Shown piece after piece: positions 41,281 through 41,435 of a stretch of DNA of 64,000 nt (position 1 is its first letter; every line of letters begins with the position of its first letter). Source of the stretch: Botryllus schlosseri (lineage: Eukaryota); assembly GCA_051294905.1 (NCBI GenBank), contig CM119371.1:40488001-40552000 (forward strand), written 5' to 3'. Position numbers and translations under genes: made by a program. Under the pieces are notes generated by a model. The model saw only the letters and a list, made by a program, of their open reading frames with translations. It was not told where the DNA came from and did not search any database.

Positions 41281-41364
41281 TTTGATATGTCTGTAATAAA
41301 ATCGCAAACAAACTACGACTCCTCATTCGTGTTCTAGTCAGATACAGCATCAATAGAAAAGTCG

Positions 41365-41435
41365 TGGAGACTACAGGAATTGAACCCGTATCTTCTGTTT
41401 GCAAGACAGATACTCTACCATTGAGCTAAGTCCCC
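41365..41435 (-). tRNA. trnA-UGC: tRNA-Ala(UGC)
   Basis: Full cloverleaf: acceptor GGGGACT/AGTCTCC with G3:U70, D arm GCTC/GAGT, anticodon arm TCTGT-CTTGCAA-ACAGA, T arm ACGGG-TTCAATT-CCTGT. A TTTT terminator lies 4 nt downstream. Confidence 0.92.

Follow-up and report, generated by a model that had tools for sequence, protein, structure and literature searches.

The stretch of DNA analysed here, 64,000 nucleotides of Botryllus schlosseri contig CM119371.1 (referred to as the window), carries a single tRNA gene, which lies inside an integrated element of the Polinton type. The gene encodes tRNA-Ala(UGC) and, on comparison of sequences, looks like a cargo gene for RNA polymerase III (Pol III) that animal Polintons have selectively kept; its function we infer. 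ARAGORN placed the gene at 41364–41435 on the minus strand (anticodon tgc). Rfam model RF00005 matched 41365–41435 of the same strand with 73.4 bits against a gathering threshold of 29 (E 3.6e-14, model positions 1–71), and nothing but this match was above threshold in the scan of the window. The gene proper is thus the 71 nt at 41365–41435 (−). It has the alanine identity set (G3:U70, discriminator A73 and an NGC anticodon, here in the loop CUUGCAA), and all 21 stem pairs of this copy are standard. The layout is that of a eukaryotic Pol III gene. Two internal strings read from the sequence, TAGCTCAATGG (tRNA nt 8–18, 41418–41428, −) and GGTTCAATTCC (tRNA nt 50–60, 41376–41386, −), resemble A and B boxes, as judged by eye against the general consensus and not by a program score. 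CCA is not encoded, and CGAC behind the tRNA is followed by TTTT at 41360–41357 (−), a terminator-like run (41357–41360) 4 nt past the discriminator. An initial annotation, made from the letters alone, had proposed a 71-nt cloverleaf with G3:U70, both boxes and a T4 terminator, and the analysis confirms it. Its span of 41355–41435 covers gene and terminator, and the strand, unnamed there, is the minus strand. The score far above gathering and the full pairing do not fit a pseudo-tRNA.

The surroundings of the gene are equally defined. AATAAA is found at 41295–41300 on the plus strand, past a plus-strand open reading frame (ORF; 40939–41280), and at 41478–41483 on the minus strand, past the gene of a ubiquitin-conjugating enzyme (E2), where it ends 43 nt before the tRNA 5′ end. 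The two poly(A) signals converge on a gap of 178 nt, and the tRNA gene lies in it. Its distance to the right end of the element (43316) is 1,881 nt. The location described earlier, about 1.9 kb inside the terminus and between convergent poly(A) signals, agrees with these values.

Copies of the gene were sought with a 201-nt query, comprising the tRNA and its flanks, in the animal's own genome. Thirteen full-length matches at 92–100% identity and 13 matches of the tRNA body only, at 82–86%, were obtained, and ARAGORN called tRNA-Ala(UGC) at 26 of the 26 loci. All the full-length matches lie in Polintons of one family (family 1), at the same internal position and with the same neighbours. By capsid search family 1 comprises 14 elements, and the presence of the gene in 13 of them answers the objection that it might belong to this copy alone. 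In the fourteenth, on C22, a copy of the left end stands in place of the right arm, and half of the caspase gene, the tRNA and E2 are gone. In the whole genome the capsid search listed 99 matches, mostly with open frames, which fall into four or more identity classes (95–100%, 85–86%, 65–70% and 34–36%). The genome therefore holds many Polinton families, several of them apparently young, and most family-1 copies are young as well (95–100% identity).

Within family 1 the tRNA changes little. Eleven of the 13 copies have 21 fully standard stem pairs and a T4 terminator run. Two sites, C40/U40 and U63/C63, set the window copy apart from the majority of ten copies; at each of them G:C and G:U are exchanged. 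L012 and L013, the copies that have diverged most, show one and two pair-breaking changes, shared with no other copy, and end in a T3 run.

Twelve of the 13 body-only matches share their flanks and constitute family 2; the remaining one represents family 3. Family-2 elements are about 17.4 kb long, with terminal inverted repeats (TIRs) of 331 nt, AG...CT ends, the duplication TAAACA and a capsid protein 86% identical to that of family 1. Their arm holds, in order, a Bcl-2 homologue (L045 828–1346), a small ORF, tRNA-Ala(UGC), E2 (L045 1848–2324), a tRNA-Pro(UGG) and the convergent virion genes. All 12 copies carry the tRNA-Ala, and 11 of the 12 3-kb loci examined the tRNA-Pro. E2 is thereby bracketed by two tRNA genes of the same strand, the tRNA-Pro lying in the gap 3′ of E2, between a plus-strand and a minus-strand AATAAA.

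Family 3, with one tRNA-bearing copy, has a capsid 69–70% identical to those of families 1 and 2. In its arm a caspase-like gene (L077 7627–8352) and a three-BIR IAP gene (L077 8587–9780) are followed by tRNA-Ala, by tRNA-Pro on the opposite strand and by degenerate tRNA-like sequence that includes a T5 run. A sister copy, 97–99% identical, has 957 nt of other sequence where the 296-nt tRNA cassette would be. The degenerate stretch (C11:4699056–4699140) ends in T5 behind a tRNA-Pro that has no T-run of its own, and is common to the copy with the two tRNAs and the sister without them. No tRNA was found in six right arms of 5–6 kb, namely those of the sister copy, of two other elements at about 69% capsid identity and of three at about 35%. 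Carriage of the tRNA is therefore a trait of one sub-lineage and not of all Polintons here.

The comparison with host tRNA-Ala genes, which the initial annotation had suggested, was carried out with a pattern for the 5′ half of tRNA-Ala, so that host counts are lower bounds. The pattern gave 72 sites in the genome: 13 of family 1, 12 of family 2, one of family 3 and 46 others. At the other sites ARAGORN predicted at least 12 host tRNA-Ala(UGC), 13 Ala(CGC), 3 Ala(AGC) and 22 Cys(GCA) genes, along with further types. About two thirds of the predicted tRNA-Ala(UGC) genes are thus borne by Polintons (26 against at least 12 of host type). The identity of Polinton tRNA-Ala to any host tRNA-Ala is 62–74%, compared to 82–88% between Polinton families and 85–97% among the host isoacceptors themselves. 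When Polinton and host genes were aligned together (13 sequences), 96.7% of cells were paired, nine of the 21 pairs had changes on both sides, and G3:U70 was present in 13 of 13. The anticodon stem and the pairs 7:66 and 49:65 are wholly different between Polinton and host tRNA-Ala, compensatory pairs having taken the place of whole stems. By these sequence comparisons the Polinton genes are a tRNA lineage of their own, unlike the tRNA-Ala of the host. Host tRNA-Ala(CGC/UGC) genes often stand 1–2 bases 3′ of a tRNA-Ser(GCU) gene (L050, L051, L057, L064, L065 and others); the host loci fetched contain 12 tRNA-Ser(GCU) genes, several of which form Ser-Ala dimers of this kind on several chromosomes.

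A tRNA inside a repeated element could also be the head of a dispersed host short interspersed element (SINE), or the remnant of an integration target. Neither Polinton-type tRNA-Ala nor Polinton-type tRNA-Pro was found outside Polintons by DNA search and pattern in the genome. All 26 genes lie within Polintons. Solo copies number 0, there is neither a SINE body nor a tail, be it A-rich or like that of a long interspersed element (LINE), and the SINE head was rejected. The ends of the element are 1.9 kb away and are flanked by ordinary 6-bp duplications of unrelated sequence; the target remnant, against which the initial annotation had already argued from the position of the gene, was likewise rejected on the element ends, the duplications and the census of copies. 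The constant internal position in all 13 family-1 Polintons with the gene also speaks against both origins, whose probability we regard as practically nil.

Substitution patterns point to selection on the tRNA. Four-fold sites of the capsid, integrase, E2 and caspase genes are 31–41% identical between families, which is near saturation, against an identity of 82–88% for tRNA-Ala in the same families. All 8 distinct Polinton sequences share G3:U70, A73 and the anticodon UGC, and the acceptor-stem pairs 1:72 to 5:68 do not vary among them either. Pairing is kept in 94.6% of the cells of the Polinton alignment, as opposed to 38–58% in slid controls. Changes on both sides of a pair occur at three pairs, a level reached by 11 of 500 shuffles. 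Where substitutions between families hit stem pairs, the pairs are standard in both partners in 3/5, 4/5, 5/6 and 2/3 of cases. Variable sites within families are fewer in the tRNA (10/143) than in its flanks (58/358; Fisher p = 0.006, families 1 and 2 together), with p = 0.14 for family 1 and p = 0.03 for family 2 taken separately. The common changes in family 1 are two, one from G:C to G:U and one from G:U to G:C. The initial annotation had asked for compensatory changes across the copies; the stems have changed mostly with pairing preserved, and within family 1 only L012 and L013 hold pair-breaking changes. That identity elements and pairing have been retained speaks for selection on the RNA itself.

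The tRNA genes also move between Polintons. In the family-1 copy at C9:5664526–5684851 a tRNA-Pro(UGG) of the family-2 type is found at C9:5684435–5684513 (L097 2436–2514), approximately 340–410 nt inside the left end. Its homology to family 2 covers 79 nt at 97.5%; its limits are precisely tRNA nt 1 and the end of the T-run, and the sequences on either side bear no relation to each other. As the transferred piece has these limits, tRNA units appear to move between Polintons as units of the size of a Pol III transcript. Such a transfer fits a Pol III transcription unit and may be read as support for transcription, no more than indirect. The tRNA-Pro of family 2 is bracketed by 18-nt direct repeats (17/18 identical) that lie 174 nt apart (L045 2452–2469 and 2626–2643). 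Each repeat holds a minus-strand AATAAA, and the arrangement resembles what the insertion of a cassette would leave behind.

The carrier in the window is a family-1 copy at 26708–43316 (+), truncated on the left and with broken polymerase and capsid frames. Its homology limits were set by searches of the animal's own 495-Mb assembly. Five other copies were aligned at the ends: the right end is sharp, with unrelated flanks beyond it, and on the left the homology runs past the break of the window copy, which is missing about 2.6 kb and the left inverted repeat. The right TIR (42900–43316, +) was delimited by these end alignments and ends in ...TTATATACTACT. With the right end as query, an inverted partner was seen about 19.3 kb away in several copies; full copies measure about 19.3 kb, with TIRs of at least 400 nt. 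The full copy on C4 has the ends AGTAGTATATAAG...CTTATATACTACT, AG...CT termini and the 6-bp duplication CCTATT. An inverted-repeat search within the window detected no TIR of the element, because the window copy is without its left end. From the TIRs, the sharp ends, the 6-bp duplication and the gene kit, the carrier is a classical Polinton, that is, an adintovirus-like integrating DNA virus. Of the marks of the group, an rve integrase (families 1 and 2), long TIRs, AG...CT ends, 6-bp duplications and a length within 15–20 kb are present.

The gene kit was examined with a Pfam run on 18 ORFs of the element region. A putative protein-primed PolB-like gene occupies 29547–33347 (+), in three frames here and in one 1236-aa frame in the C4 copy. 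In the ESM Atlas 19 of the 30 named matches of its ORF are PF03175 clusters (top score 0.97), and the Exo and Pol motifs were recognised by eye; there was no Pfam PF03175 match and no sequence match in PDB. It is followed on the plus strand by an A32-like packaging ATPase (33376–33996; Pox_A32 2.4e-09) and an rve integrase with chromodomain (34886–35890; rve 5e-13, Chromo 3.9e-11). The putative major capsid protein gene (38019–39297, +) is split in the window and intact in most copies (425 aa). Its Pfam match to double-jelly-roll families is weak (0.004 to 0.023). A protein database gave 7 matches, the best named one being a 'Major capsid protein' of Patella caerulea (29%), and no relatives were found in IMG/VR with the protein as query or in JGI metagenomes with a three-sequence alignment. 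Where the maturation protease would be expected there is a 153-aa ORF (39294–39755, +), which has no family match and is conserved at 45–59% in other Polinton groups sampled from the same genome.

The remainder of the arm consists of a caspase-like accessory gene (40113–40853, +; Peptidase_C14 3.2e-13), a 113-aa ORF convergent with E2 (40939–41280, +; no Pfam match), the E2 gene just upstream of the tRNA on the same strand (41545–42024, −; UQ_con 5.5e-45) and a 106-aa ORF between E2 and the right end (42135–42455, −; no Pfam match). The three tRNA-bearing families thus have genes of cell death or ubiquitin in this arm: caspase-like and E2 in family 1, Bcl-2 and E2 in family 2, caspase-like and IAP in family 3. 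Outside the element, 24000–26390 is the end of another large repeat, of which inverted pairs separated by about 10 kb are seen elsewhere in the genome; a short tandem array joins it to the broken left edge of the Polinton copy. A fold-back inverted repeat at 44846–45416, with 150-nt arms that are 98% complementary, is part of a repeat some 620 nt long that has dozens of copies genome-wide (79–96%). An NLR-like ORF of 492 aa with NACHT and NOD2 winged-helix domains (45744–47222, −) lies 2.4 kb past the right end of the Polinton.

How the element could profit from the gene was considered with these results. We give slightly better than even chances to the reading that the element makes a working, chargeable tRNA by Pol III, possibly with an added benefit at the DNA level. 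Host Pol III would transcribe the tRNA-Ala from the integrated or replicating element. Host alanyl-tRNA synthetase would charge the predicted product through G3:U70, and the product would decode GCA and GCG. With gene dose, that is, with the copy number of the element, the supply of this decoder would rise when the genes of the element are expressed. A Pol III/TFIIIC-bound unit between convergent genes of RNA polymerase II (Pol II) may be an extra benefit that does not exclude the former. By analogy, the tRNA genes of polinton-like viruses (PLVs), virophages, giant viruses and phages are thought to boost the supply of decoders likewise.

Codon use was compared for the same purpose. The GCA share among alanine codons and the CCA share among proline codons are 0.28 and 0.30 in family 1 (19 ORFs, 252 Ala codons) and 0.31 and 0.26 in family 2 (13 ORFs). 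In the host they are 0.15 and 0.30 in three near-duplicate HSP70 genes, and 0.54 and 0.39 in the NACHT ORF beside the element (26 Ala codons). The HSP70 ORF of the host shares 97% and 95% identity with two entries of Botryllus schlosseri and 82% with one of Styela clava, which marks the genome as that of an animal, a botryllid-like ascidian. The idea of the initial annotation that the tRNA supplements translation, which is the usual explanation of viral tRNAs, gains weak support at best from the GCA share: this is above that of HSP70 and below that of the NACHT ORF, and the combined GCA and GCG share is equal (about 0.52 in family-1 ORFs vs 0.51 in HSP70).

RNA reads were also inspected. In run X15, 69 reads were found, all at about 41466–42125, in E2. 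As many as 65 of the 69 match only in part and run on into sequence unlike that of the window, their loose ends lying at 41700 and 42086; they may stem from a diverged paralogue of E2, from a spliced relative or from a chimeric transcript. Runs X19 and X11 gave no read on a 1.3-kb stretch around the tRNA. In run X1, which may be DNA, one contig with the letters of the majority variant spans 41278–41961, including the tRNA.

Several observations weigh against a working tRNA kept by selection. With the small host sample, codon supplementation has at best weak support for alanine and none for proline, and the host supplies its own tRNA-Ala(UGC) from at least 12 canonical genes. No read of X15 falls on the tRNA, in a cDNA library of a kind that rarely captures tRNA. 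Mismatches in the tRNA-Ala occur at 6:67 in family 2 (U.U or U.C) and at 27:43 in families 2 and 3 (G.A). One family-1 copy has lost the whole tRNA-bearing arm, and the tRNA is not essential to Polintons, as the six tRNA-less arms, that of the family-3 sister without the cassette among them, demonstrate. The similarity of the tRNA between families may partly reflect later exchange of cassettes and not common descent: since the tRNA stands at different places of the arm and cassettes move, the similarity may postdate the splits of the families, and the argument from saturated four-fold sites is weakened to that extent.

The position of the gene suggests a role of the DNA rather than of the RNA. 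tRNA genes act as barriers or roadblocks in yeast and mammals, and the Pol III/TFIIIC-bound gene could be a roadblock or insulator between convergent Pol II units, the type of tRNA encoded being secondary; it would limit read-through or antisense overlap, or hinder silencing from spreading to the accessory arm. The 178-nt gap of family 1 fits this, and so do the equivalent gap of family 2, which holds a different tRNA, Pro(UGG), also between opposed AATAAA signals, and the placing of family-2 E2 between tRNA genes on each side. A DNA that merely binds proteins would not need the invariant anticodon, G3:U70, A73 and pairs 1:72 to 5:68, nor pair-preserving changes; there is some variation inside the box regions, and neither the tRNA-Ala of family 2 nor the tRNA pair of family 3 lies between convergent genes. 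The position fits the insulator idea of the initial annotation, while identity elements and pairing point to selection at the level of RNA, and we regard a DNA role by itself as unlikely though by no means far-fetched. Both roles can be combined. Mobile tRNA cassettes of Pol III-transcript size would then circulate among co-resident Polintons and do a double job, as a chargeable tRNA and as a Pol III/TFIIIC block between convergent genes, the block keeping the anti-apoptosis and ubiquitin arm expressed and preventing antisense overlap; we hold this for speculative and rather doubtful.

The mobility of the cassettes raises the matter of a neutral passenger, occasionally picked up, whose conservation would result from recent capture and bursts of copying. 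Transfer of tRNA-Pro into a family-1 copy, family-3 copies of 97–99% identity that differ in the presence of tRNAs, the 18-nt direct repeats, the many Polinton families without tRNAs and the youth of most family-1 copies (95–100%) agree with it. Against it, no host gene like the Polinton tRNA-Ala was found as a source, the best host tRNA-Ala being 74% identical. Nor does a passenger account for the same isoacceptor in three families that are 12–18% diverged in the tRNA, with identity elements intact and stems mostly paired, or for a tRNA less variable than its flanks; a passenger is improbable on these grounds. An RNA that does not decode, on the other hand, would be compatible with the conserved RNA-level structure. 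It could be a regulator in the manner of the virus-associated (VA) RNAs of adenoviruses or the tRNA-like RNAs of gammaherpesviruses that dampens stress, apoptosis or RNA-based defence, or it could decoy a tRNA-cleaving defence. The tRNAs do stand in host-manipulation arms, and codon use offers no clear rationale for a decoder. These putative activities are drawn by analogy, however, and the full set of elements for aminoacylation and decoding is most simply understood as use as a tRNA. The terminator directly behind the tRNA leaves no attached hairpins, and RF00005 gave the only matches, both in the window and, with E values up to 0.1 admitted, in sister elements totalling 65.6 kb. A VA-RNA-like gene (RF00102, a hairpin of about 160 nt) was rejected, with no match in the window at gathering or in seven sister loci at E up to 0.1. 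The analogy to VA RNAs drawn in the initial annotation is thus unsupported for this canonical cloverleaf with its alanine identity elements, and a non-decoding role is decidedly improbable. A chargeable Pol III product remains the reading that we prefer.

Polintons are debated as transposons or as true animal viruses. A tRNA lineage of their own that is selectively kept in three families, next to genes for Bcl-2, IAP, E2 and caspase-like proteins, is host-manipulating and translation-tuning cargo such as one expects from a replicating virus and not from a passive transposon. As the Polinton anticodon stem is unlike that of every host tRNA-Ala, a probe or tRNA sequencing could report Polinton activity, use of Pol III and dosage. 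For annotation of the genome, 26 predictions of tRNA-Ala(UGC) and 12 of tRNA-Pro(UGG) are Polinton cargo and not host genes. No report of tRNA genes in animal Polintons, and none that connects Botryllus with Polintons or Mavericks, was found in the full-text literature searched, subscription journals being outside its reach. The word 'tRNA' is absent from a vertebrate Maverick phylogenomics paper, a nematode Polinton paper and a 2026 preprint on PLV diversity.

Among known systems, tRNA-derived SINEs are also dispersed tRNA-like Pol III units, but here the dispersal is entirely by a carrier of 17–19 kb. Adenovirus VA RNAs and gammaherpesvirus tRNA-like RNAs are Pol III genes with internal box promoters and are not canonical chargeable tRNAs. 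The likeness lies in Pol III genes of nuclear DNA viruses, adenovirus being distantly related to Polintons; unlike VA RNAs, Polinton tRNA-Ala forms a complete cloverleaf that includes an anticodon and the identity elements of alanine, and RF00005 is its only match. For the tRNA genes of phages, a model of codon compensation was reportedly put forward by Bailly-Bechet et al. in 2007. The tRNAs of phages and giant viruses have AT-shifted stems, are unlike those of the host and usually decode codons ending in A, and both Polinton tRNAs have U34 (UGC, UGG). Phages and giant viruses often carry arrays of many tRNAs, and the contrast in codon usage expected from them is not clear here. A scan of IMG/VR with the 5′ half of the tRNA gave 9 contigs, 8 with phage or giant-virus tRNA arrays and one without a tRNA, and no Polinton protein match was found on these 9.

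Adintoviruses and animal Polintons or Mavericks have the same gene kit, and in the portion of the account available (PMC8502044) Bcl2 and IAP homologues are given as accessory genes, matching families 2 and 3. In that portion the only mention of tRNA genes is in the Figure 6 legend, where it concerns related viruses whose replicases are of other kinds and not adintoviruses themselves. The word 'caspase' occurs 0 times there and 'ubiquitin' is used of OTU and UCH domains alone, whereas caspase-like and E2 genes are present here.

The closest systems are PLVs and virophages, small (15–40 kb) double-jelly-roll DNA viruses or elements of the same broad assemblage, which carry one or a few tRNA genes as the Botryllus Polintons do. 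From the parts of the two surveys available, 558 tRNA matches (Rfam) are reported among about 8,300 PLV and virophage genomes (PMC12220804), and the virophage survey gives tRNAs for 18 sequences of high quality and for another 12 (PMC6905037). Their lists, as far as seen in these parts, include tRNA-Ala and tRNA-Pro(TGG), both isoacceptor types that also occur here, and the authors propose compensation of codons or amino acids, or capture from the host (PMC12220804, PMC6905037). The premise that tRNAs are not regular Polinton genes has to be corrected for the wider group (PMC12220804, PMC6905037); for animal Polintons no report was found in the literature searched. The PLV and virophage cases come from protists and metagenomes, and among the rows listed in the part of the tRNA table available (PMC12220804) there is no Opisthokonta or Metazoa row. 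In Botryllus the host is an animal and the carrier a classical Polinton with PolB-like gene, rve integrase and 6-bp duplications; unlike in PLVs and virophages, the same isoacceptor is found in three families and beside cell-death genes. The tRNA-Ala gene of Botryllus is thus best filed with the known virus-borne tRNA genes of the Polinton/PLV/virophage assemblage, where it is noteworthy for its animal host, for one isoacceptor across three families beside cell-death and ubiquitin genes, and for the mobility of cassettes of transcript size.

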